Assembly (NCBI GenBank): GCA_964565945.1
Contig: CAZMGY010000030.1
Coordinates: 30,001 to 62,000 of the forward strand
Source of the DNA: an uncultured bacterium
Lineage (GTDB): Bacteria; GCA-001730085
DNA: 32,000 nt
Direction: 5' to 3'
Part shown: positions 4,978 to 25,237 of the stretch, piece after piece
How positions within the stretch are numbered: the first letter of the stretch is position 1
How the letters are laid out: each line of letters opens with the position of its first letter
Notes under the pieces: model-generated
Databases searched by the model: none
What the model saw: the letters and a program-made list of their open reading frames with translations, nothing else
What the model was told of the DNA's origin: nothing
Translations under genes and position numbers: made by a program

Positions 4978-7900
4978 ATGTATTGTATGCGCTTTGAACG
5001 AAGCCCTCTCAGCAATAAATTTATCAGCCTAGTCACCTTATCTTTATTCATTCTCACTGATTTTGTTTTCGCCCTTAGCCCTGAGTCTCAACTGAACAAC
5101 AGTCGTTTTCGCGAATTTATGAAAAGACAACTAGGCCCAAGCGATACAGGCGTCACAACTACAAATCTTCACCCGCCTGCTCCCAACATCAACAATAATC
5201 GCCTTCAACAAACCTCTATTGAACTACAACATCCTTCTCACCACGAAAGGTCGGATATCCAAACTGTGGCAGCGCTACTTGATTTTTTCCAAGAACAAAA
5301 CCCCGACTGGAACACATTTGTGGATAGATGGAATGGCGATCAAGGCAGCAAAGACTTTAAAGATCTCTCCGCCCATAATCCTACAACTTTAACTCAGAAC
5401 CCTTTTAACCCGCGCAATCCTAAATTTCGAGACATGACCAAGATGCGCAAAATCCTTTTCGGAAAGCGTGATAGTGACTTCACAAGCCCTACAGCGGGAC
5501 CAACCTACAACCTCACAGCTCCCAACATAACCTTCACCCATACCGTTAACGAACAGCTTGTGGGAGGCAATATTAACATTCAAGACCTCAACTTTCGTTA
5601 TAGCATTCAAGGTGATCCTAACGTTCACTCCACACCTCTCACAGTCATTCGTGTTTCTAATGAGCGCGCTAGTGATCTAGCTCAATTTTTGACTCAACTT
5701 GACTCAACACGTTCATCTCACAATCGTGCCATTCAATATGATAAAAAGGGTCGAACAGGTCTTCATGCCTTTGTTGAGGGCAATGAAACCTTTATCGTCA
5801 TCAGACGTAGCCTCAGAACCGCTTCATGGTTAGACCTATTTGGCATGCCCAGCCAAGCACCGCAGGGAACCAACAACACTCATCCTTATCATCAAGTGCA
5901 GCTCTTAAAAAGAAGAAATACCCGCATGCGTATCGAAAACGAACAATTGGCTTACGGAGACATGGCTCACCACACACTCTTACAGCAAACCAGTTCTGTC
6001 AAACAAGCGCGCAATATTTTAAAATCCACAGGTGTATTTATCGATCAACGTTTTAGTGCCAGTATGGATGTTTTGGGATTACAACGTCTCCAAGACCCTT
6101 ATCAGGTCAGCTTTCAAGGACAAACGCTCAAACTTGATCCTAGTCGTCCCACACAAAGCTTGCTTGATCAATACCAAGCCCACTTGGATGGTCATCTCGA
6201 AAAACTCCTTAAAGAACAAACCCAACGCGAAGAAACGTTCCTCAATTTGAAGCCTAGCCCTCTTGAAATAGACCCTGTCCAAACACTAAAAATGCCCTAT
6301 GTGCGCCATAAACTAACTACGTTTTACGCTCAACTCACAAATCCTCAAGAACAGCTTCACAACCAAACCAAACAACATGTGGATTCTTTGGTTCGCGACC
6401 GGATTCAAACCATTATTCAAACTGATTACAGTGCTCTAGATAAATTTCCCACTGTCGAGGTATGGCAACATCGCCAACAAACGCTTAATTCACTCCATCA
6501 GCAATTACGACCTTTCATGGAAAACTTCAAGACATTTTTGCAACACTCACGAGCTCTTGGCAATGCCTTTAGAACTGAATTACAGCAAGACGTTGCGTCC
6601 ATCGATGAAACTCTACTCAAAGGCTTCACTCTGACTAATGATATCGACAAATTCATCATTGCCTTACTCACTAATCCCAATGGTATTCAGCATAAAATTC
6701 AAGCTATGGCCCAACGCAACCCCGCTTTAGAAGAACTGCAGATATTCTTCTCCACCACATACTTTCCTCACAAGCACAGTGCTATCAATAAGCTTGAACG
6801 AACCCTTGATCGTTACGGTAACGTTCAACAGCGTTTCCTCAAGCAAACACACCAGGAAGAACAGACTGTAGAACATCTCAAACATCATGTGCAAATGCTC
6901 AAAACTCTATTGAATGTTCCTAGCAATCAGGTTCTGATCAATGTTTATTTAAAGCCAGGTTTAAGCATCAAAGACTCTATAGATTCCTTAACTCTTACAC
7001 TCGATAATCTCGAAATAAGACAAACTCAACTAAAAAAACTCAAACAAGAACCTAACAGTGACTATCCTACTCGCACGGATATTGATTTTGAAAACTTAAA
7101 CAATGTGATCCAACTCCTAAACGGTCAATTTTTAGGTCTTAAGCAGCCGCATGCCTCCAAAGTTCAAGCACAAGCCGACCAGGTCAAACGAGTTAACTAC
7201 TCCAAAACCAAAGAGTCTTATATTGATGGCAATAAACTTGCCATCGAAGCTATGGAAGCCTATTACGACGACCTCTTTGCCCAAAATCTTCAAAAAAAAC
7301 AAAAGATTTGGACTGTGTTCTCCCATTGGGATAACCTTCGTTCCCCAGAATTTCAACAAACTTTCGATCAATGGAGTAATTCTTACCAACAACTTCTGAC
7401 TGGAGAGACTGCACAGCACAAGGCCAAAGCTCTTATGAAAGCTGTGATCGTTTTGCATGAAGCAGTCCAACTTATTCGCCAAGTGGATGCCCCTTACTTA
7501 AGTCGCGAGTTCCATCACGTTTCCCCTGCTCTCGAAGCCCTTTATCAGACGTTTGCCAATAACTCCATACCTTGGCAAGCAAAAGCCGCCTGGCAAACTT
7601 TAGTGCAAAACCAATACATCTCTCCACTCTCTCAACACCAACAAAGCACCTTTATGGAGAAAGTACGCAAAATCTCAACAGCTCACTCGACCGAACTTCT
7701 CCAATTTGAATTTCGCGAACTTTACAAATCCCTGCGTAATAGTTTAGAGGCTGACTATGGAAACCTTCCTCATTTAAAACAAGCCTTGCAAGAGGTTTTG
7801 GATCAACCTTCTGTAGAGCGCGACCAACCCATCACACTTGATATCGATAAGCCTTTGGTGGCCATCCATCAACCTGATGATAAGCTCCTTATGGTTCCGT

Positions 7901-10900
7901 CGGCATCACTCCCTGCATTTTACCGTCAATCAAGACCTCTACCGATGGTCCAACTGGCACGATCAGGCAAATTAGGGCACCATCCAGTGGTCTCTCAACA
8001 AACACAGCAACATAGACAGCGCCAAATTACTAAGTCCTATCATCCTCAAACTCAAAAATTTCAGCAAACAACATCTATCCGTCCAGGATTTCAACTGAAC
8101 CCAACAACATCACAATTTGAACCACAACTGGTTCAAAACCGTCCTCTTGTGCAACCTTTGAGTTCACAAAATCAAGGACCCGATTACGAACAACTTATCC
8201 AAGATGAATTTAAAAAACGGGCGAGAGTCCATACAAAGCAACAGCAACCCCAAGCAAATTTTCCTCAATCACTTCGAACTAATGCACAAGAAGATCGGTT
8301 TGTCTCAATCACTGCTTTCGACAACTTCACCAAGCTAGATTCACAACATCAGGACACAATCCAAGAACAGGACGCCGCACCACGCAACAAAAAACGTATG
8401 CAAGAAATTTATCAAGAACGTAGTCAAAAATCTTTCCACCGAGCCATTATAAGCCAACTAAGGCCTCAAGATGACCCCAAAGACATGCACACAGGTCGCA
8501 AAAGTTTTGCGAATCAAGCCATGAAATTAATTGACCAAGTCCAAGTCCTCATACCAACCACAGAAAAAAGCAAGGGTTCTTCATCAGATACCTTTTCGCT
8601 TTGGGACCAGTTTCAACAAAACTTTAAAACCCATATGAGCGCCAATCCATTAGATACTGCAACACAAACGCTATTTTTGAAACATCAAAGCAACTGGACA
8701 GAGCGCCTCGAAGCCATAAAAAAAGCAACAAGACAAATTCAAAAAAATTCTGACAGACCTCGTTTTTTGGGTTCCAGTGAAACAACACTAAGACAACAGT
8801 TCCAGGAGCAGGAGCAACACCTCGAAGATATTCGACGTGAGATGATTACAGAAGCTACTCGGTTGGAAGAAGCCGTGGAAGGCACACGCTATCGACCAGA
8901 CTCGTTCAAAACTTACAATACCCTTCTGTCCGAAGTATCTCTTCTCTCCGCAACAGATTTTCCAAACCATATTAAAAGACTCCAAGCAAAAATTCACCTT
9001 AGGCTACAAAGCCCCCAAAGCATCCGCCAGGATGTACTTAACCTTCTCGAGGCCATTCGCAGTACTGACAATCAAGAACTTATTCGCGAAGCCTACACAA
9101 TCGCCTCGCATGTGTTGAAAGGCCCGCACTTCCCAGACTTCACACTCTTACCCAACATTTCTGTCGACTCAAATGCAATTAGACCTTTACTCGTTCAAGC
9201 ACAAGATCTTCAGCAACGTGAAAAACAGGTAAAAGCTAACGACATGAAGGAACAAAATGCTATTGCCGCAGAACTTAAAAATCTTAAAACTGCTATAACC
9301 ACTCCAGCATTACTCGCTGAACTGTACGAATGCATGGTCAAAGAAGTTGCCGCTCAGTTGGCCCAAATCGTCAGTACAGGACAAATACCTGATCACACCG
9401 CCGAAATTGCCAAACGTCGCCAAGCCATGGACGAGCAAAAAAAAATCTTAGAAGAAAAAATAAACCAAAAAAACTTACCCAAAAACTATTTGTTTCTAAC
9501 ACACTTTGGTCCAATGACGATACAGCAAATTAATGTCGCCCTTAACTCGGCTTATTCATGGTCGACCCCAATTATGTTAGCATTTCTCATAGAGCTGAAT
9601 TCCGCAGTGACACAAAGCTTCCCTAACAGGCTACAGCGTTATCAACGCCTTAAAGAATCAATACGCCGTGATTTGTGGAGCGAAGTAAGCTGGACAAGTA
9701 CAGCACTAAAACAAGAAGTCTCTTTAGAAACACTTGATCAAACACTAAAAGACTTAACCACTCCTTTGCAAGTCTATCAAACTCAAGTATTGCTTCAAGA
9801 GGCTATGCAAGCCATTCACGAATATTACACGAATCGACAGTCCATAGAATCTCAAAGAGATCATACAGGACACCTTCAACACCTTCAGCGTATGAAAAAC
9901 TTTACAAACGATATTCATTTTGGCATGAAATTGAGAATTATCAATAACAAAGTTTATGTCGTCGATGTACTGCCTGGAACAGCGTCCGCAGGAAACTCTA
10001 TACCACTTTACAGCCAAATCACAAAAGTTGTTGGTTTTTTTCGCAATATAACCGAGCCTACAGATATCCTAGCCAAACTCCAAAACCAAGCGACATTAAG
10101 CGTAACCATTCACTACCAACCCAGTTTGTCCTCGATCTTAAATTCGGAGGTCCAGAGTGTCCACTATCAACCAACGCTTGGATTGGCTGGCTTCACCACG
10201 CAGGTGGTCGAACATCAAACCGTTGAGATTCCTTTTGACATTTATGAGAGAAAATACAAAGCCGAAATGCAACATCTCCAACTAAATGCCTCAACAGAAG
10301 TTGTATACTCCTCCTCCAACAATTTGGACACAGATTCGATTAGCGAAGCCACCTATAACGCTCTTCCAGCTAAACTACAAAAAAACTATAAAAAGATGAT
10401 TATCTTCCCAGCTAAAGTGAGAAACCTTCCTAACGTGGGAAAGCTTCCAATGGACGCTGTCGATTACCTTCAAAGCAGATACCGTGTTGTGGTCACCAAT
10501 ATCACCGACCCCAAACTTACAAGTGAGCTACCTTTAAACGCTGCAATTACGGCTGTTCGCATCAAAGGACAGTTGTATCCTATTCACAAAACAAGCCCTC
10601 GCGAGGCATTGGCCCTACAAGCTAGAATCAATAGCGCGTTCGCCAATGGTACCCCGATGACGATCTATTTCAATACATCTGAAAAAACTAAATATACAGT
10701 TTCTCCATTCGAGAGCGAAGTTCACTCTTTCACTGTCAAACGCGAAAACGCAAAAGCCCCGATTTCCATCATGACTGCCCCCACCATCACAAACATCGAA
10801 GTCACAAAAAATGGAACCTTCTACACATTCACCCATGTCGTCACCGAAGTCTCTCCGAATTCGCCTTTTTATGGTTCTCTTTTTCCTGGAGACAAACTCG

Positions 10901-17900: not shown

Positions 17901-20900
17901 ATGTTTTATAACTTTAAATTGCCGTTAACCATTCTTATTTGGAGTATTCAGGCTCCTCTCTGGGCTTTGCCGCCCATCGAAATACTTCCCATGCTGGGAG
18001 CGGGCTTTATTTTTCCCATTCTGCTTACACTCCTTCTGGGACATACCCTTTTCAAAGTTCTCGAACTAAGCTCTTATGTACAATCTTGGATCAATCGCCT
18101 CAAGGCTTGGCAGTTGATCCTTATTATGGTTTTCACCTTTCTGGCAGTAGGCACAGGGTTTAACCTCCTCAACAACTCTCATCACACTTATAGCCTATCT
18201 GTGGCCACACTGCACCAAACCCTTTCATCGACCCCAAATCAAATACTCATCATCGATTTACGGACCGACACCTCGCATCGCCGATCTCACCTGACACGTT
18301 CAATATCACACCCCATGAAAAGTGTTCAAGACATCGTCAATAAACTTAGTCAATTGTCCCCAGATCAAGCCAACAGACCAAAGATTGTTCTCGCTTGCCA
18401 TCGGGGCGAACGTTCTTCATCGCTGGTCGAAAGCATTCGCAAAGGGCGTTTTGACGAACTTTCTCACCTGCCTAGGCAACATATCTATTATCTGCACGGC
18501 GGCCACCACACAATGAAAGCTCGTTACCCTCATCATTTTGTATCTCAAGCTCCTCCTTCCAATCTGCAGGCCTTGTTGAAACCTTGGATGACATTGGTAG
18601 GTGGGCGAAAACAAATGCTCTATCTATTTTTTGCCAGCCATGCCTTATTTTTTTTCGTTTTTCGTTGGCATAGCCTTAAGCGAACACTCAACCCAATGCA
18701 TCTCCAACGCAATCCTTGGCTGTATCGCCTCTCGTTCGTTCACCTCACAATTGCATGGCTCCTGTTCGAAGAAACATCTCTCGTATCCGACGGGCGCTAC
18801 ATCCCATGGACTCTCAACCTGGTTTTTCTAAGTTTTGCCTACTTCAGCAGCATCATGCCCTCCGACAAACGCCAACAAATCGTTCACACCCTATGGCATC
18901 AAATCTTGGGCCAACACACAAGCACCCCTTCCGTAGACAAAGTTTTTCATCCGATTCTCTTCTTAGGTCTCTTGCTTCACTGGGGCATTATATTACAAGA
19001 TTTTGTCATCTACACAAGCCTATGGCTCGGCTTTCTATGGATCTGTGACCTTAGCCTTGCTTTTTTCGGATCTTACCAGTTACGCCGTCACCAACAACCC
19101 CACGGTCTCGTCCTAAGCTGGATTGGTTTTAAAACATCTCTAAGCAAAAGCCCCGCTGGCCCGACAATACTTAAGCTATATGTCGCTAATGCACCGGGTT
19201 GTTTTGAACTTCACAACACCAACCAAACTTTGTTGATCGGGCTTTTTTCAGGACAGATGCAACAAAAATGCCCTACCCCATCTTTAAATATCTCTAAGTT
19301 CGTGCAAACGGCTCAGGAAATTCGAGCCACATTTCCAAGCGATTCTATCCAACTTCAACTGAACGACCATCACGCCATTGTAGCGATTGAAATCCTAGCC
19401 CCCGATCGAGAAGCGCCATGGAACCTTTATCAACAATGGAGCACACTGCTTCCTTGGTTGCAACATTTCAAACCAAACGATGTGATTTGGCAACGCTATC
19501 AAGATGGGGCTATTCAACAACCTCTCAAACCTCTTGAGCAAGATATTTTACAAGAACGTTGGCGCCACCGTGGTGGTGCCCGTAGAGCCTTAAGCTTTTT
19601 AGGCTTTAGGCATCAACTCAATGAAACCCTCTTACCTCCTCTATGGCTATCATGGGGATCGCACCATTATCAGCTGCAAGTGCAACAGCTTCTTCAGCCC
19701 CAAGCCGTGTTGGGATTTAAAGCGTGGCAACATCTGCGATTTCATGCCAAAGTGCGTGCTTTCATTCAAACAGCTTGTCGTCATCTCTTAAGCACACAAA
19801 TAGCCCAACATCACCAACGGATCACTTGGATTCAGAACTTACTCACTCAATCGTCTCGACGAACTCCCCGTAGACTAATCAAAGTGCTCAAAAGTCTTGG
19901 ACAAGAGGCCGCTTTTTGGCCAGAGCTGACAAGTCAATTACATCTATGGGCGTGGAACCATCAAAACGACAACACCCATCATAAACCTTGGCCGCAGCAA
20001 ACTCCTCACACAAACCAACACTATCACTTTGATCTGTCTAACTCACAAACCCCTCAAGACCTATCCCTTGCCCAACGACACCTTTGGATCTGCGAACAAA
20101 TGAAACAGAACGCGCAAGACCACTTTTTAACCGAATGGCAGTGGGTCAATCAACTGCTTCAAACACAGGCCCCCTCATCTCTTTTGTTTTGCCGATTAAA
20201 GGAATGTCTCTCCTTACTTCAAAAACAGACACCCGATTCTTTAACCAAACGGATCCAAGAAAGGCAAAAGCTCTGGCAAGCTACATTACACCTCATCCTC
20301 CCAGAAACCCTTACGATCAAAACTATCGAAAAGGTACGCTGTAATGAAGCGTCGGAGCCAAAAATCCAATCGAAACAAAGCTCGTATCTGATTTGTATGC
20401 CCAACACACGTATTTGGGGACAGTGCCAAAGCCAAGCTTTTAATCCTAATAAAATCACAGTGACCCCTAACATCTCTCCCCATAAAGTCGCTTCCGACAC
20501 CATGCAAGGTTTAGTTCTCGAACAAGGTAGCCCTTTGTGTCACCAAGCTATTTTAGTGCGTGAACACAACCTGCCATCGCTGTTTCACGTATCACAAGCA
20601 ATTCAAGAGTATCCCGAAGACAGCTATATTCTTATCAACGATCAAGGCCTCATCAACAAACTTCCTCAACCAACATCCTATTGGACCTTCCTTAATCAAA
20701 CCACAGCAAGCCATGGACCCAAAGCTTATAACTTGGCACGTTGTGCCCAACACAATATACGAATTCCAAATGCCTACGTCATTCAATCGCTATTGCTAGA
20801 AGAGTGCATCTCTCTCAAAACTTGGGATCAACCTTGGATTCATCTTGCCCAACAGGCCCCGTCAGATTTACAAACCAACCAACTCCCTCCAGCCATTAAA

Positions 20901-21449
20901 ACAATTTTACACAATCTCTGGAACACGTTTACCTGCCCAGCCAGCGGGCTTTTGGTGCGTTCTTCGGCTCACAACGAAGACAGCCAACAGCACTCAATGG
21001 CGGGACAATATACATCCATTGGCCCTATTATTAACAAAGAAGAATTTGAGCGAGCCGTTACCCAATGCTGGGCCGCAACCTGGACGCAAGGGCATCCAGA
21101 CTTGCCCAAACAAGAATGCCACATGAATTTGATTGTACAAGATTACATCGTAAGTTCATTAGGGGGCGTGATGTTCATCCACGACACCTCAGACAAACCT
21201 ATTCAAATCGATGTCTCTTCTCAAGGACCCGAAGGAACGGTGCAGGGACAAGATGTGGAACACCTAGAATACGACACAGCAACACACTACCAAGCTAGTT
21301 TGCTCTTAAGTGCCCAGCAACAAGACAAGCTCCTCAAACAAGCCAAAAATCTTCAAACAATTTTTAGGACCAACCTCGATATCGAATGGTTAATCCACAA
21401 TAATAACATTGTGATTCTGCAAGTTCGCCCCATCACGACGTCTTTTTAA
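17901..21449 (+). CDS. Polytopic membrane protein with rhodanese, PEP-utilising swivel (phospho-His) and PPDK_N ATP-grasp domains (dikinase-like phosphotransferase; substrate unknown)
   Basis: The ATG is the first start after an in-frame TGA, and a GAGGGA SD is present. About 3 N-terminal and about 5 further hydrophobic helices flank the rhodanese domain. Domain motifs are listed in the sub-features. Confidence 0.88.
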   Translation: MFYNFKLPLTILIWSIQAPLWALPPIEILPMLGAGFIFPILLTLLLGHTLFKVLELSSYVQSWINRLKAWQLILIMVFTFLAVGTGFNLLNNSHHTYSLSVATLHQTLSSTPNQILIIDLRTDTSHRRSHLTRSISHPMKSVQDIVNKLSQLSPDQANRPKIVLACHRGERSSSLVESIRKGRFDELSHLPRQHIYYLHGGHHTMKARYPHHFVSQAPPSNLQALLKPWMTLVGGRKQMLYLFFASHALFFFVFRWHSLKRTLNPMHLQRNPWLYRLSFVHLTIAWLLFEETSLVSDGRYIPWTLNLVFLSFAYFSSIMPSDKRQQIVHTLWHQILGQHTSTPSVDKVFHPILFLGLLLHWGIILQDFVIYTSLWLGFLWICDLSLAFFGSYQLRRHQQPHGLVLSWIGFKTSLSKSPAGPTILKLYVANAPGCFELHNTNQTLLIGLFSGQMQQKCPTPSLNISKFVQTAQEIRATFPSDSIQLQLNDHHAIVAIEILAPDREAPWNLYQQWSTLLPWLQHFKPNDVIWQRYQDGAIQQPLKPLEQDILQERWRHRGGARRALSFLGFRHQLNETLLPPLWLSWGSHHYQLQVQQLLQPQAVLGFKAWQHLRFHAKVRAFIQTACRHLLSTQIAQHHQRITWIQNLLTQSSRRTPRRLIKVLKSLGQEAAFWPELTSQLHLWAWNHQNDNTHHKPWPQQTPHTNQHYHFDLSNSQTPQDLSLAQRHLWICEQMKQNAQDHFLTEWQWVNQLLQTQAPSSLLFCRLKECLSLLQKQTPDSLTKRIQERQKLWQATLHLILPETLTIKTIEKVRCNEASEPKIQSKQSSYLICMPNTRIWGQCQSQAFNPNKITVTPNISPHKVASDTMQGLVLEQGSPLCHQAILVREHNLPSLFHVSQAIQEYPEDSYILINDQGLINKLPQPTSYWTFLNQTTASHGPKAYNLARCAQHNIRIPNAYVIQSLLLEECISLKTWDQPWIHLAQQAPSDLQTNQLPPAIKTILHNLWNTFTCPASGLLVRSSAHNEDSQQHSMAGQYTSIGPIINKEEFERAVTQCWAATWTQGHPDLPKQECHMNLIVQDYIVSSLGGVMFIHDTSDKPIQIDVSSQGPEGTVQGQDVEHLEYDTATHYQASLLLSAQQQDKLLKQAKNLQTIFRTNLDIEWLIHNNNIVILQVRPITTSF
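18190..18515 (+). other. Rhodanese-like domain with an intact active-site loop
   Basis: ILIIDLRTDTSHRRSHLTRSISHP...KIVLACHRGERSSSLVESI. The C-x-x-G-x-R-S loop (Cys codon 18396-18398) matches the 6-residue sulfurtransferase-type loop, not the 7-residue Cdc25 type. Confidence 0.8.
20380..20665 (+). other. PEP-utilising enzyme mobile (swivel) domain with candidate phospho-histidine
   Basis: KITVTPNISPHKVASDTMQGLVLEQGSPLCHQAILVREHNLPSLF...SYILINDQGLINKL, compared with the PpsA/PPDK consensus GG.TCHAAIIARE.GIPAV. The His codon is at 20541-20543. Confidence 0.7.
20715..21446 (+). other. PPDK_N-type nucleotide-binding (ATP-grasp) domain
   Basis: GPKAYNLARCAQHNIRIPNAYVI, LLVRSSAHNEDSQQHSMAGQYTSI, NLIVQDYIVSSLGGVMFIHD and LDIEWLIHNNNIVILQVRPITT match the signature blocks of the PpsA/PPDK/rifampicin-phosphotransferase N-terminal domain. 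Confidence 0.75.
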
Positions 21450-21811
21450 ACAAAGAACGCTCTGGTGGTCTGTAATGAAATATCAAAAAGAAAATTAGCT
21501 AAAATCCACTTTTGGCCTTGTTTATAAGCCAAGAATCGCGCCGTTACATCCGTTTTTTCGTAGTTAAAAGTCAAGAAAATCAAATGAGCCGTTGGTGTAA
21601 TCACTTGAATGTCTTTGACTTTGTAACCAACAAACTTACCATGAGCATACTCAACCTGACGCAACAATTTGGCTTTGTCGTCTAAATCTGCATGGCCATC
21701 TTGCGCACTTCCACAAGCCCAAAAAGCTACTACCGTTGCTGCATCCTTTTCCAAATAAAGATCTAATCCTTCCACAAGAATTTCGGGAATATCTTTTTTA
21801 CTTTTAGCCAT
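21446..21811 (-). CDS. Hypothetical 121-aa cytoplasmic protein
   Basis: Clean ORF with its own strong promoter (next feature). I recognised no motif. Its TAA overlaps the TAA of the convergent 1,182-aa gene. Confidence 0.6.
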   Translation of the reverse strand: MAKSKKDIPEILVEGLDLYLEKDAATVVAFWACGSAQDGHADLDDKAKLLRQVEYAHGKFVGYKVKDIQVITPTAHLIFLTFNYEKTDVTARFLAYKQGQKWILANFLFDISLQTTRAFFV

Positions 21812-21953: not shown

Positions 21954-23423
21954 TCAAATTAACCCCATCCATTCGCGCAAAGCATCCAAATGGCTCTTCA
22001 GCCGCGTCCGAGCATACATTTCACTTTGGCCAGTGGCCATCATAAATATCCAATCACTGCTCAAAACCTCTCTCCAGTGAACCTCACAGGCCTGATGAAT
22101 GGATTGATCCCATGATCCATGTTGATAATGAGCCCAGAGCGCTTTTAACTCCCTCCAAACCCAATCATTATTGGGGTTAAGCCACCTACGGTGATATCCC
22201 CCCTGCCCCCAACTGGACAAAGCGGGCTGAACCATCTCACAATCGCCCCATTCAGGTCCATATTGCTCAGGAGTGCTCAAAACCAAAAGATCATCCTTAT
22301 CCAAACTATCCCAAACCCGCTCCAAGAACCACAAACCTTCCCACCACCAATGGCCAAACAACTCGGCATCAAAACAGAGTGTCATGCAGGGCTGAGGTAC
22401 GCCCGCCGCCTGGATGTGATCCACCCGTTGCCTTAGTTGGTCCATGAAAAGCAAGGCATGCTCCCGGACTAAAGTCTGTCCCTCAGAAGGTCTATATAAA
22501 GATGGAAAATCTTCCTTAAAACCAACCCGACGATGTTTGAAGCCAGTGGCCGTGATTCCTCCTCGCTTGGCCTGATAATTCTGCAAACAAGAACTTGTCT
22601 CATCAAAACCAATATCGCAGTAAAAATCACGGTAAACCCCAGAACCTGGGTACCCTTCACTCGCACTCCAAATCCATTTGCTACTCGTCGCATCTCTCCC
22701 CCAAGCCATCACATCATTCGCACATCGAACTGGGTGAAAAACACCTCGTCGCGGTTGAGGGTAGGCCTGCAAAATACCATGTGTCTCTAAAAAAAAGTAC
22801 TCCACACCTATGGAGTGAAGGTATTGTTCAAAGCCTGGCACATAGCCACATTCTGGCAACCAAAACCCTCTCGAATTAAAGCCAAACGCTTGTTCAAACA
22901 CAGCACAGCCTTGGGATATTTGTTGCTGAACCAGCTCGGGTTGATCATTCCAAAGAGGTAAGTAGGCATGACTTTCCGACGTGGTGATTAAGGCCAGAAC
23001 ACCCTTACGCGCTAAATCTCCCCAAGCTTGCACCAGTCCTCCTCTTCCTAAAGAGACCCAGCCATCACGCACGCGCAAATAATGATCCAGGTAATGTTGC
23101 GCCAATTTGGTCGCTTCGGATTTCTGGGCATGACGCTGGGCATAGTCTTCAGCCAAAGCAATATGTTCATCAAGGTAAGCTTCATATTGTTCAAGTAAAA
23201 GGTCTTCTTGCATCATGCGCAACAAAGGCGGTGACAAAGACAAAGTGAGCACATGACGATAAGCTCGCACATCTAATTTTTGTAGCAAGATCAATAACGG
23301 AATGTAGGTTTCGGTCAAAGCTTCAAAAAACCAATCATGCTCTAAACAATAAGCGAGATCGTCATGACACACATAAGGCAAATGAGCATGCAAGACCCAT
23401 TGCACCCGCCCTTTCACGACCAA
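21954..23423 (-). CDS. Glycoside hydrolase family 57 1,4-alpha-glucan branching enzyme
   Basis: GH57 signature regions are present: WVLHAHLPYV, GFWLPECGY (nucleophile Glu region) and CFDAELFGHWWWEG (acid/base Asp region). The start is either TTG 23423 or GTG 23417; the GTG forms a GTGA overlap with the upstream stop. Confidence 0.9.
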   Translation of the reverse strand: MVVKGRVQWVLHAHLPYVCHDDLAYCLEHDWFFEALTETYIPLLILLQKLDVRAYRHVLTLSLSPPLLRMMQEDLLLEQYEAYLDEHIALAEDYAQRHAQKSEATKLAQHYLDHYLRVRDGWVSLGRGGLVQAWGDLARKGVLALITTSESHAYLPLWNDQPELVQQQISQGCAVFEQAFGFNSRGFWLPECGYVPGFEQYLHSIGVEYFFLETHGILQAYPQPRRGVFHPVRCANDVMAWGRDATSSKWIWSASEGYPGSGVYRDFYCDIGFDETSSCLQNYQAKRGGITATGFKHRRVGFKEDFPSLYRPSEGQTLVREHALLFMDQLRQRVDHIQAAGVPQPCMTLCFDAELFGHWWWEGLWFLERVWDSLDKDDLLVLSTPEQYGPEWGDCEMVQPALSSWGQGGYHRRWLNPNNDWVWRELKALWAHYQHGSWDQSIHQACEVHWREVLSSDWIFMMATGQSEMYARTRLKSHLDALREWMGLI

Positions 23424-23776
23424 GAACTACACCCTTCCTCATACTGAGAAAGTTCGTAAATGGCTTGCATATCGGGGCAAAAAGGAACTCGAGGCGCGGG
23501 AAAGGTTTTAAACGGCTCGCTCTCGGCCAAAACCTCCTCGACGTTTGTGGCATCATCCACCATCAGCACACGATAAACGTTTCCTGGATCAGGCAACATC
23601 ATATGCCAACTCTGACTAGCCGAAGCAACTGAAATATGGTAACATTCAGCCCAGTTCCCAGAGACGTCTTGCTTATCTAAACATAAAGTGACTTGCAAAG
23701 AAGCCCCCTGCTCCATGTCCCAAGAGACAAACACCCAGCTGGAGTCACTTTGCTGAACTGATAACTGTTTGCGCAT
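23414..23776 (-). CDS. Small DUF4912-like protein that commonly accompanies GH57 branching enzymes
   Basis: Position immediately upstream of, and translationally coupled to, the GH57 gene. The segment SDSSWVFVSWDMEQ resembles the DUF4912 core. I prefer ATG 23776 over the TTG 23785 used by the track. The family call is from memory only. Confidence 0.45.
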   Translation of the reverse strand: MRKQLSVQQSDSSWVFVSWDMEQGASLQVTLCLDKQDVSGNWAECYHISVASASQSWHMMLPDPGNVYRVLMVDDATNVEEVLAESEPFKTFPAPRVPFCPDMQAIYELSQYEEGCSSWS

Positions 23777-23792
23777 AAAAATCAACCTAGTT

Positions 23793-23817
23793 TGATATAA
23801 TGAAGATCATTATATCA
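23793..23817. promoter_or_regulatory. 25-bp perfect palindrome carrying two divergent extended -10 boxes (bidirectional promoter and/or operator)
   Basis: TGATATAATGA-aga-TCATTATATCA. TGaTATAAT reads on the plus strand at 23793-23801 and on the minus strand at 23817-23809. It lies between the divergent DUF4912/GH57 and ferredoxin/desulfurase/thiI operons. Confidence 0.5.
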
Positions 23818-23876
23818 TAGGCCAAGTTTAGTGATACAATAGAATCTTTGATAACAACAATAAAGTATCTGAACCT

Positions 23877-24110
23877 ATGGCCTCCAAGGAACACAAATAC
23901 ACAGAAAATGTCGATGGTGCTTTTTATGTCGATGAAGAATGCATTGTCTGCGATGCCTGCATGGAAGTTGCGCCAGACCATTTTGTGATAACCGAGGATA
24001 ATGACCATGTCTACATACGGCTTCAGCCCCAATCCGATACTGAACAAAAAGCTTGCTTGGATGCTCTCGAAGCCTGTCCAGTTGACGCCATTGGTCAAGA
24101 TGGTGCTTAA
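23877..24110 (+). CDS. Small single-cluster [4Fe-4S]/[3Fe-4S] ferredoxin
   Basis: 77 aa and acidic, with CIVCDAC (CxxCxxC) plus a distal ACP Cys-Pro ligand. Confidence 0.85.
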   Translation: MASKEHKYTENVDGAFYVDEECIVCDACMEVAPDHFVITEDNDHVYIRLQPQSDTEQKACLDALEACPVDAIGQDGA

Positions 24111-24115
24111 AAATA

Positions 24116-25237
24116 ATGCTTTATCTCGATAATGCCGCCACAACCCAACCCCTTGAGTCTTCCATTCAATTGATGCAAAGCATTTTACAAAACCAATGGG
24201 GCAATCCTTCTTCACTCCATCGCCTCGGGGTTCAGGCAGCCGACATATTAGAACAGGCCCGTTTTCGTTTGGCTCAAAACTGGTCGATTTCTGCCGAAGA
24301 AATTATCTGGACCAGTGGCGCCACCGAAGCCAACCAAACGATCCTTCTTCAAGCTCCGGGAAACCCCAACTCTCGCAAAAACCACATCTTAGTTTCGCCT
24401 TTCGAACATCCTTCGGTGACTAAAGCATTACCTATCCTTAAAGCCAACGGCTTTGAAATTGAGTACCTGGCCATTAACCTTAAAGGGCATATCAATGCCA
24501 AGGACTTAGCTAGCAAACTGCGCCCCGAAACAGCTTTGGTCAGTGTGATCGGTGTGCATAATGAACTTGGTGTCAAACAAGATATTGATCACCTGAGCCA
24601 AATCATTCGCAACACAAATCCCAAAACACGTTTTCATGTCGATGCCGTGCAGTGGATCAACAAATATCCTTTTCCAAGTGGGCCCTACCGTCCCGACTTC
24701 ATCACCTTTTCAGCACATAAATGCCATGGTCCCAAAGGCATCGGAGGCATTGTTAAACGCAAGGAGGTTCCTTTAACACCTCTTTTACAAGGTGGTCAAC
24801 AAGAACACGGCTTTCGTGCAGGTACCGAAAATATTGCTGGGATTGTGGCCAGTGTCGAAAGTTTACTCAAAATGAACGCTAAAATTGATCACAGCTGGGC
24901 TCAAAGTATCGAACAGACGTTGCACAGTTATGTCAATGCTCACCCCGATCTGGTCTGGGTCAGTCCCCCTCCTGGACCACACAAAAGTCCCTGGATTCAT
25001 ATGATCAGTGCTCCCAAACATAAAAGTGAAGTGCTCATTCATCGCTTAGAGGATAAGGGAATTTTCATTTCTTCGGGAAGCGCTTGTTCCGAGAAAAAAA
25101 AGGAGCGCAAAGTTTATGTCGATCTCATGAAGCTGTCTCCGACAATTGAACAAGGTTTACTAAGAATCTCCCTGTCGAGCTCCAATCAAACCGATGATAT
25201 GCAAGTCTTAATCACCAGCTTAGGAGACATCTTATGA
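24116..25237 (+). CDS. Cysteine desulfurase (class V aminotransferase, NifS/IscS/NifZ-like)
   Basis: LDNAATT, SGATEAN, PLP-lysine motif SAHKCHGPKGIG, GTENIAGI, and the catalytic-Cys loop SSGSACS. Confidence 0.9.
   Translation: MLYLDNAATTQPLESSIQLMQSILQNQWGNPSSLHRLGVQAADILEQARFRLAQNWSISAEEIIWTSGATEANQTILLQAPGNPNSRKNHILVSPFEHPSVTKALPILKANGFEIEYLAINLKGHINAKDLASKLRPETALVSVIGVHNELGVKQDIDHLSQIIRNTNPKTRFHVDAVQWINKYPFPSGPYRPDFITFSAHKCHGPKGIGGIVKRKEVPLTPLLQGGQQEHGFRAGTENIAGIVASVESLLKMNAKIDHSWAQSIEQTLHSYVNAHPDLVWVSPPPGPHKSPWIHMISAPKHKSEVLIHRLEDKGIFISSGSACSEKKKERKVYVDLMKLSPTIEQGLLRISLSSSNQTDDMQVLITSLGDIL

Follow-up and report, generated by a model that had tools for sequence, protein, structure and literature searches.

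The gene analyzed here occupies positions 17901..21449 on the forward strand of a 32,000-nucleotide stretch of DNA from an uncultured bacterium (positions 30,001 to 62,000 of contig CAZMGY010000030.1), and this whole stretch is referred to below as the window. The gene has an ATG start and 1182 codons followed by a stop, and its 1182-amino-acid product is probably, if with some reserve, a membrane-anchored, circularly permuted phospho-histidine dikinase of the RPH/PigC/HpeHI group that phosphorylates a hydroxyl acceptor close to the membrane. The identity and order of the domains, the conservation of the catalytic residues and the homology found for the middle region are computed results, and they describe a conserved yet uncharacterized family that includes Legionella proteins, not a one-off. 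An earlier reading of this DNA, made from the letters without database searches and referred to here as the original prediction, had as its core a membrane-bound dikinase-like phosphotransferase. That core is upheld by a catalytic histidine and ATP-grasp residues that are invariant in 18 family members, and by nearest structures that belong to rifampin phosphotransferase (RPH) and HpeI. The known phospho-histidine swivel dikinases serve central metabolism (PpsA and PPDK), act on starch (GWD), confer antibiotic resistance (RPH), or take part in pigment synthesis (PigC) or phenol breakdown (HpeHI). With a membrane-embedded branch, the reach of this chemistry would extend to the envelope of the cell or to signaling.

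Domain content, catalytic residues and family

Pfam matches in the protein were judged against the gathering cut-offs. Three domains exceed them, in the N-to-C order Rhodanese, PEP-utilizers (the swivel domain with the phospho-histidine) and PPDK_N (the ATP-grasp domain). Rhodanese (PF00581) covers residues 106-201 (E 2e-5, 25.4 bits against a cut-off of 22.2), PEP-utilizers (PF00391) covers residues 848-913 (E 1.2e-7, 31.6 bits against 23.1), and PPDK_N (PF01326) covers residues 939-1100 with a second stretch reaching the C-terminus (E 2.2e-22, 80 bits against 27). The phosphoenolpyruvate (PEP)/pyruvate barrel, PEP-utilizers_C (PF02896), gave no Pfam match in the protein at E up to 1, and carbohydrate-binding module (CBM) families, CBM45 and CBM20 included, gave none even at permissive E-values. 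This is the hmmscan-type check that the original prediction had proposed, and it returns the same three domains in the stated order and without a barrel. The strings quoted there are likewise all present in the translation, namely CHRGERS (with C166), GSPLCHQAILVREHNLPSL (with H881), VRSSAHNEDS...AGQYTS and DIEWLI...ILQVRPIT, and the numbering given there for C166 and H881 is right.

The phospho-histidine swivel domain (amino acids ~827-915; 20379..20645; this and all other segments of the gene are on the forward strand) is identified by PF00391 and aligns to the swivel domain of the Listeria rifampin phosphotransferase RPH-Lm. Its catalytic H881, encoded at 20541-20543 and present in the translation within the motif GSPLCHQAILVREHNLPSL, sits in a G-x-x-x-H-x-A-I-x-x-R-E motif, as expected of RPH/PigC-type dikinases. 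The C-terminal ATP-grasp nucleotide-binding domain (amino acids ~925-1182; 20673..21446), identified by PF01326 and by matches to RPH-Lm and HpeI, has K941, R1020-S-S, E1026-D1027, Q1080, E1162, Q1174 and R1176 as its key residues.

RPH-Lm (5hv1/5fbs) and HpeI (9goj) are the closest solved relatives. The family profile matches RPH-Lm with E 4.6e-78, and Foldseek returned 5hv1 at E 9e-11, with HpeI 9goj also a top match, in structure as well as in sequence. Lys22 and Arg117 of RPH-Lm bind ATP and are essential (PMC4844700), and K941 and R1020, both invariant in the family, align to the motifs that contain them. RPH converts ATP to AMP, Pi and a phosphorylated acceptor by way of a beta-phospho-histidine (PMC4844700), and by analogy the same chemistry would be expected of the window protein. 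RPH-Lm, PigC, HapC, RedH and BsPPS likewise consist of ATP-grasp, helical substrate-binding and phospho-histidine swivel domains and provide the best match in both sequence and structure. Compared with RPH, the window protein carries the ATP-grasp domain at its C-terminal rather than N-terminal end, has a central domain ~150 amino acids shorter, and adds an N-terminal module of ~400 amino acids with eight hydrophobic segments and a predicted periplasmic rhodanese domain. PpsA and PPDK have homologous ATP-grasp and swivel domains, but the window protein differs from them in domain order and in having no PF02896 match.

No curated NCBIfam family fits the protein, every model scoring far below its cut-off. 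The best partial matches are PigC, RedH and PRK06241 ("PEP synthase-like"), equivalog scores are 54-103 bits against cut-offs of 999-1350, and TIGR01418 scores 47.7 bits against 739.75. Because its order is substrate domain, swivel and ATP-grasp, we read the protein as a permuted relative of the RPH/PigC group that falls outside the curated RPH and PigC equivalogs.

When 1.8 billion cluster representatives were searched exhaustively with HMMER, ~17 clusters of homologues of 1200-1400 amino acids with the same architecture and a C-terminal ATP-grasp domain were found. The named members belong to Legionella sainthelensi and L. micdadei, and a scan of species-representative genomes adds L. longbeachae, L. 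santicrucis, L. gratiana and metagenome-assembled genomes of Legionellaceae. A word-index homologue search, run with the protein and with the family alignment, recovered the query alone; a single-protein scan of 185,579 species-representative genomes recovered no relative; and a genome scan with a middle-region alignment of the Legionella-type subgroup recovered Legionellaceae only. Annotations carried by family members ("pyruvate phosphate dikinase", "rhodanese-like domain-containing" and "PEP/pyruvate-binding domain-containing") are generic or wrong. The first of these is unjustified on the Legionella members because the PF02896 barrel has no match and the domain order differs, and family members with this label are mis-annotated. 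The culturable Legionella hosts (L. longbeachae, L. micdadei and L. sainthelensi) make the family experimentally tractable. Literature searches on the rhodanese-dikinase architecture, on the Legionella members and on lipid dikinases found nothing relevant; with no paper and no fitting NCBIfam family, the earlier statement that no characterized protein with this combination was known still holds.

Conservation was counted in an 18-sequence alignment of the family. PPDK_N and PEP-utilizers are detected in all 18 members, and the rhodanese domain in 15. H881, G876, R887, E888, K941, R1020, S1021, S1022, E1026, D1027 and Q1080 are invariant, and rhodanese residues C166, G169 and D119 are kept in at least 90% of the sequences. 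Loss of catalytic residues in homologues, raised in the original prediction as a possible sign of degeneration, is not what the alignment contains: H881 is invariant and C166 nearly so.

Two further proteins were noted during these comparisons. In one relative (P0020; L015, 13459-14025) the last ~100 residues of the ATP-grasp domain are encoded out of frame with the remainder of the gene, which is either a frameshift, an assembly error or the mark of a pseudogene. A protein of 758 amino acids seen among the ATP-grasp matches (P0085) has a radical SAM-SPASM domain fused to PPDK_N.

Middle region and permuted domain order

The middle part of the protein has no Pfam match, and the original prediction had left ~470 amino acids of it unassigned. 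This region can now be placed, since hhalign finds it collinear with RPH-like dikinases. Family residues 410-850 matched an RPH-like profile with a probability of 92% (E 5e-7, 388 columns), and the match spans residues 222-793 of 865 in a template of canonical order, covering the C-terminal subdomain of its ATP-grasp domain and the helical central domain and extending into the swivel. A further comparison also gave a partial match, and phmmer matched residues 765-901 to residues 707-845 of an 865-amino-acid RPH-like protein.

Two segments can be distinguished within this region. The helical central domain (amino acids ~536-826; 19506..20378) was assigned by hhalign and is all-helical in AlphaFold2 (AF2), of which two models were made (predicted local distance difference test, pLDDT, 69.6 and, for the second, of residues 1-430, 62.1). 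By its profile match it is a shortened substrate-binding domain of the rifampin-binding domain (RIF-BD)/HpeH type, located directly before the swivel, and it is the presumed acceptor site. Ahead of it lies a beta-rich segment (amino acids ~417-500, with GLFSG ... D-x-x-L; 19149..19400) that falls inside the hhalign match from template residue 222. In the AF2 model this segment runs strand-strand-strand-helix-strand-strand, and it has weak same-register matches to the protein's own C-terminal ATP-grasp domain that alone are not statistically secure. Tentatively, an ancestral N-terminal ATP-grasp domain probably left this segment behind as a remnant of its C-terminal subdomain.

Taken together, the protein looks like a circularly permuted RPH-like small-molecule dikinase. 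Tandem duplication with truncation at both ends would produce the order of ATP-grasp remnant, central domain, histidine domain and full ATP-grasp domain, and the remnant, if real, would be a classic relic of circular permutation by this route.

In PpsA, PPDK and RPH the ATP-grasp domain precedes the histidine domain, whereas GWD, the alpha-glucan, water dikinase, has a central domain, a histidine domain and a C-terminal ATP-binding domain in that order (PMC13553574), and both comparisons were correctly drawn in the original prediction. The order is more widespread than that prediction suggested: besides GWD, it recurs in the HpeHI pair and, among the search matches, in soluble bacterial proteins of ~700-1200 amino acids (P0054, P0072, P0098, P0140 and P0064) whose domains run substrate, histidine, ATP-grasp. 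In the two-component kinases HpeHI, CreHI and PpsAB, the HpeH component comprises a RIF-BD-like domain and the swivel, and HpeI is the ATP-grasp component (PMC12167813). Reading H then I as a fusion in HpeHI, CreHI and the phenylphosphate synthase PpsAB gives the order of the window protein. Unlike HpeHI, the window protein is a single polypeptide, predicted to be membrane-bound, and carries a rhodanese domain, and its probable ATP-grasp remnant before the central domain would fit duplication and truncation better than gene fusion. GWD and PWD have the same succession of substrate part, histidine domain and C-terminal ATP-binding domain, and they too are without a PEP/pyruvate barrel. The window protein differs from both in having no detected CBM45 or CBM20, in its predicted membrane anchor and in being bacterial. 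The central domain of GWD is reported to have very low homology to RPH substrate-binding domains (PMC13553574), whereas that of the window protein matches the RPH type in the profile comparison. No GWD central-domain entry was found among the Foldseek or PDB sequence matches, although 9HA9/9QVI were possibly not in the searched library.

A single origin of the permuted order was considered and is unsupported. The nearest ATP-grasp neighbors of the family are proteins of canonical order and not the soluble permuted ones, and for this reason the permutation probably arose more than once. What distinguishes the family is its N-terminal module of membrane helices and rhodanese domain. Among the soluble proteins, P0064 (1208 amino acids) joins a cytidylyltransferase-like domain to the central, histidine and ATP-grasp domains.

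Membrane module and rhodanese domain

Hydropathy and AF2 secondary structure agree that three hydrophobic helices precede the rhodanese domain and five follow it, as the original prediction had estimated. The first hydrophobic segment (amino acids 1-25, ending APLWA|LPPIE; 17901..17975), defined by hydropathy and the family alignment, is followed in that alignment by a conserved A-x-A / I-P-P-P-E motif that resembles a signal-peptidase site, and it is probably a cleaved signal peptide or otherwise the first transmembrane helix (TM1). TM2 (amino acids 29-52) and TM3 (amino acids 69-91) are connected by a K/R-containing loop that is predicted to be cytoplasmic (17985..18173; hydropathy, AF2 helices and homologue loop charges). 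The rhodanese domain then follows (amino acids ~100-215; 18198..18545; C166 codon at 18396-18398), located by PF00581, by profile and by Foldseek and predicted to be periplasmic. Behind it lies a block of five helices, TM4-TM8 (amino acids 238-391; 18612..19073; hydropathy and AF2), in which P302 and R324, the latter in a putative cytoplasmic loop, are invariant and the acidic D383 in TM8 is conserved. Pfam has no match for the membrane helices, and Foldseek found no membrane protein resembling them; with the AF2 model of residues 1-430 its sole matches were rhodanese folds.

The family profile matches the rhodaneses GlpE, PspE and YgaP and a Francisella rhodanese, and Foldseek matches to the domain include Cdc25 and GlpE folds. 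The active-site loop is C166-H-R-G-E-R-S, and the family consensus C-x-x-G-x-x-S/A is of the six-residue sulfurtransferase type. PspE, GlpE and YgaP have the same fold and the same kind of loop, and the predicted periplasmic site resembles that of PspE, but in the window protein the domain sits within a polytopic protein, with transmembrane helices on either side, and is fused to a dikinase. A phosphatase of the Cdc25/arsenate-reductase type was rejected: the loop is not the seven-residue C-X5-R, the Arg being at C+5 (C-X4-R) and replaced by K, T, Q or A in relatives, and the Cdc25 top matches in Foldseek reflect the shared fold only.

The distribution of charges argues for a particular orientation. 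In four homologues with a clean 3+5 arrangement, the N-terminus and the TM2-3, TM4-5 and TM6-7 loops hold 73 K/R, against 3 in the TM1-2, TM5-6 and TM7-8 loops. The window protein has 14 K/R inside and 1 outside, the inside count taking in the 40 residues that follow TM8. Its need for ATP confines the dikinase to the cytoplasm, and with this pattern of helices and charges the rhodanese domain would fall in the periplasm. From hydropathy and the positive-inside rule, then, we predict a periplasmic rhodanese domain and a cytoplasmic dikinase. Because it would be looped out periplasmically between TM3 and TM4, the rhodanese domain could not be the phospho-acceptor. It may be either an independent, tethered PspE-like sulfurtransferase or a sulfur/redox-sensing input that acts on the cytoplasmic enzyme through the helix bundle.

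Candidate acceptors and genomic surroundings

Activity, like topology, acceptor class and the role of the rhodanese domain, is something we infer, and the proposed mechanism draws on homology, on the invariant residues and on the established mechanism of RPH, PPDK and HpeHI. ATP would be bound by the C-terminal ATP-grasp domain in the cytoplasm. H881 of the swivel would attack its beta-phosphate, upon which AMP and Pi would leave and a beta-phospho-histidine would stay. The swivel would carry the phosphate to the central domain (amino acids ~536-826), just after the last membrane helix and at the inner face of the membrane, where it would be handed to the hydroxyl of an acceptor. We favor an acceptor that is embedded in the membrane or close to it, such as a hydroxylated lipid, a polyprenol-linked or glycolipid intermediate, or a glycan.

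Neighborhoods of the relatives were compared by all-against-all BLAST across 14 family loci. Arrays of 2-4 paralogous B12-binding radical SAM genes flank homologues in four of these loci (L009, L021, L029 and P0006), with proteins 25-40% identical between loci. B12-radical-SAM is the sole family shared between some of the 14 loci, and BLAST found no shared neighbor of uncharacterized function among them. PMT_2 (GT-C) glycosyltransferase genes lie within 5 kb of the homologue in four loci, and several environmental loci also have GT2, NAD-epimerase, DegT aminotransferase, SPASM radical SAM and methyltransferase genes. The B12-radical-SAM arrays with the GT-C, GT2, DegT, SPASM and methyltransferase genes look like an undescribed lipid or glycan tailoring cluster. 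The neighbors in the environmental subclade, which are not orthologous partners, hint at lipid, glycolipid or glycan tailoring at the membrane. An envelope or glucan acceptor, one of three readings offered in the original prediction, gains weak and indirect support from these neighbors of relatives. Processing of the giant protein encoded upstream, another of the three, is unsupported, as no relative among the 14 loci has such a neighbor.

Several observations weigh against a permuted dikinase with a membrane-proximal acceptor. Confidence in the AF2 models is modest overall and low in the membrane part, and the topology is drawn from hydropathy and the positive-inside rule only, with one or two homologues having ambiguous helix counts. 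In the central domain the window protein departs from the family consensus (TPL is KPL, and one conserved Arg is Q739), and the catalytic Arg-Glu pair of RPH has no clear in-register conservation in the family. No neighbor is common to the whole family in the 14 loci, and those of the window and Legionella loci are unrelated housekeeping genes or, in Legionella, genes of unknown function. Between loci the PMT_2 genes are not orthologs, and their association with the family could be chance in GT-C-rich genomes.

These points leave room for other explanations. It is possible, but we consider it unlikely, that the protein is a GWD-like glucan or glycan dikinase whose substrate, at the inner face of the membrane, is either a glycogen-like alpha-glucan or a glycan, lipid-linked or from the envelope. 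Such an enzyme would have the domain order of GWD, as the window protein does, but the central domain is RPH-type by profile, no GWD structure appeared among the Foldseek matches, and no carbohydrate-binding module was detected with Pfam. Within the window, genes for a GH57 branching enzyme and a DUF4912 protein are found 0.5 kb downstream, a distance that the original prediction gave correctly, but they are on the opposite strand, convergent and not co-transcribed with the dikinase gene. A GH31 gene is directly upstream of the homologue on the same strand at one locus (L021). In L020/L026, which represent one Legionellaceae sequence, a protein of 738-772 amino acids is encoded directly upstream on the same strand (31 bp away in L026) and resembles the amylase domain of glycogen-debranching enzymes, but the match (E 1.4e-4, 21.5 bits) is below the Pfam cut-off of 27. 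GT-C and GT2 genes occur near four relatives, but most family loci have no glycoside hydrolase nearby, and glycogen is cytosolic, which would make a membrane anchor needless.

A transmembrane sensor appears about equally improbable. In such a protein the periplasmic rhodanese domain would sense thiosulfate, persulfide or oxidants through C166 and switch the dikinase, whose target would be a regulatory small molecule or a protein; by analogy, it would be a one-component receptor built on a phospho-histidine module, as in the GAF-domain Enzyme I PtsP. The layout is receptor-like, with a helix-flanked extracytoplasmic domain, the N-terminus out and the C-terminus in by prediction. The membrane helices have few conserved polar residues, as in a transducer rather than an enzyme or transporter, and C166 is widely kept. 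The gene is also usually solitary, outside any pathway operon, and found in host-associated bacteria. Against a sensor, no conserved partner protein or receiver is encoded nearby, the central domain is of a small-molecule-binding type, and the three of 18 members without a detectable rhodanese domain have kept the rest of the protein. The literature searched held nothing relevant on a rhodanese domain as periplasmic sensor, and we know of no precedent for one.

A related and similarly speculative possibility would couple the extracytoplasmic rhodanese domain, as a sulfur/redox input, through the bundle of 7-8 helices to a cytoplasmic dikinase that phosphorylates a membrane lipid or a lipid-linked envelope precursor. 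If this were true, sulfur or oxidant status outside the cell would control envelope chemistry inside. To our knowledge, neither a dikinase with a lipid acceptor nor one gated by a periplasmic rhodanese domain has been described.

The remaining reading in the original prediction had the dikinase activate a persulfide or selenide on C166, as in selenide, water dikinase, and this is very improbable. An intact rhodanese Cys and a dikinase do occur in one polypeptide across the family, and sulfur-related genes are found within a few kb at several loci: an IscS-like gene and thiI in the window, a PALP enzyme gene and YeeE-like genes in L. micdadei, a single-domain rhodanese in L017 and an FGE-sulfatase in L015. 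However, these neighbors vary by locus, and the rhodanese domain and the ATP-dependent module are predicted to be on opposite sides of the membrane. An odd number of helices (five) separates them in the best-behaved members, and no conserved Cys is present in the membrane helices to relay sulfur.

That the window copy is a degenerate pseudo-enzyme, keeping the fold but not the activity, would fit its position as the most divergent member (19-24% identity to the others in the multiple alignment), the substitutions at several family-conserved positions of the central domain and an unusual composition (111 Gln, 65 His and 39 Trp in 1182 residues), but it is very improbable, as the protein retains the rhodanese Cys and every catalytic residue that is invariant in the swivel and ATP-grasp domains, the reading frame is intact over 3.5 kb, and the identical 1182-amino-acid protein is called on 18 contigs of public assemblies from several sequencing runs and samples.

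Within the window, a Shine-Dalgarno-like GAGGG, read from the sequence, is located at 17890..17894 on the forward strand, 6 nt 5' of the ATG at 17901. The giant open reading frame (ORF) upstream (4978-17781, forward strand, 4267 amino acids) ends 119 bp before the dikinase gene. It has weak PDZ matches only (in Pfam, and one PDB match at E 0.008), and no sizeable tandem repeats were found in it. On the other side, an ORF of 121 amino acids (21446-21811, reverse strand) faces the dikinase gene in convergent orientation, with a 4-nt overlap at the stop codon of the latter. This ORF has no Pfam or PADLOC match, but it is also called as a gene in other assemblies of the same organism, and a strong sigma-70-like promoter match (11/12 positions) precedes it at 21892-21864. 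The reverse-strand cluster at 21954-24215, comprising the GH57 gene with a branching-enzyme C-terminal domain, the DUF4912 gene and an ORF of 142 amino acids, probably belongs to alpha-glucan metabolism.

Genes further out include rnhB-murB-ddl-ftsQ, the IscS-like gene, thiI, a thioredoxin-reductase-like gene and those for a 2-oxoacid:ferredoxin oxidoreductase. At 24116-26388 on the forward strand, the IscS/NifS-like cysteine desulfurase gene overlaps the start of the gene for a ThiI of 384 amino acids, which is without the C-terminal rhodanese domain that E. coli ThiI has. Gene calls in related assemblies place a small Fer4_13 ferredoxin gene immediately upstream. The 2-oxoacid:ferredoxin oxidoreductase (27645-31539, reverse strand) has one CBS domain inside its thiamine pyrophosphate (TPP)-binding subunit, adjoining a separate CBS-pair protein of 157 amino acids, which is an unusual arrangement. 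PADLOC found no defense systems in the window, a plasmid collection gave generic ATP-grasp matches only, and no tRNA or Rfam match lies within the window. GC skew on the forward strand is strongly negative throughout (-0.10 to -0.28), with a GC content of 38-47%, and proteins encoded in the window are rich in Gln, His and Trp. The best named relative of the Ddl encoded in the window, with 49% identity, is a protein of "PVC group bacterium (ex Bugula neritina AB1)". The source lineage is deep and probably host-associated.

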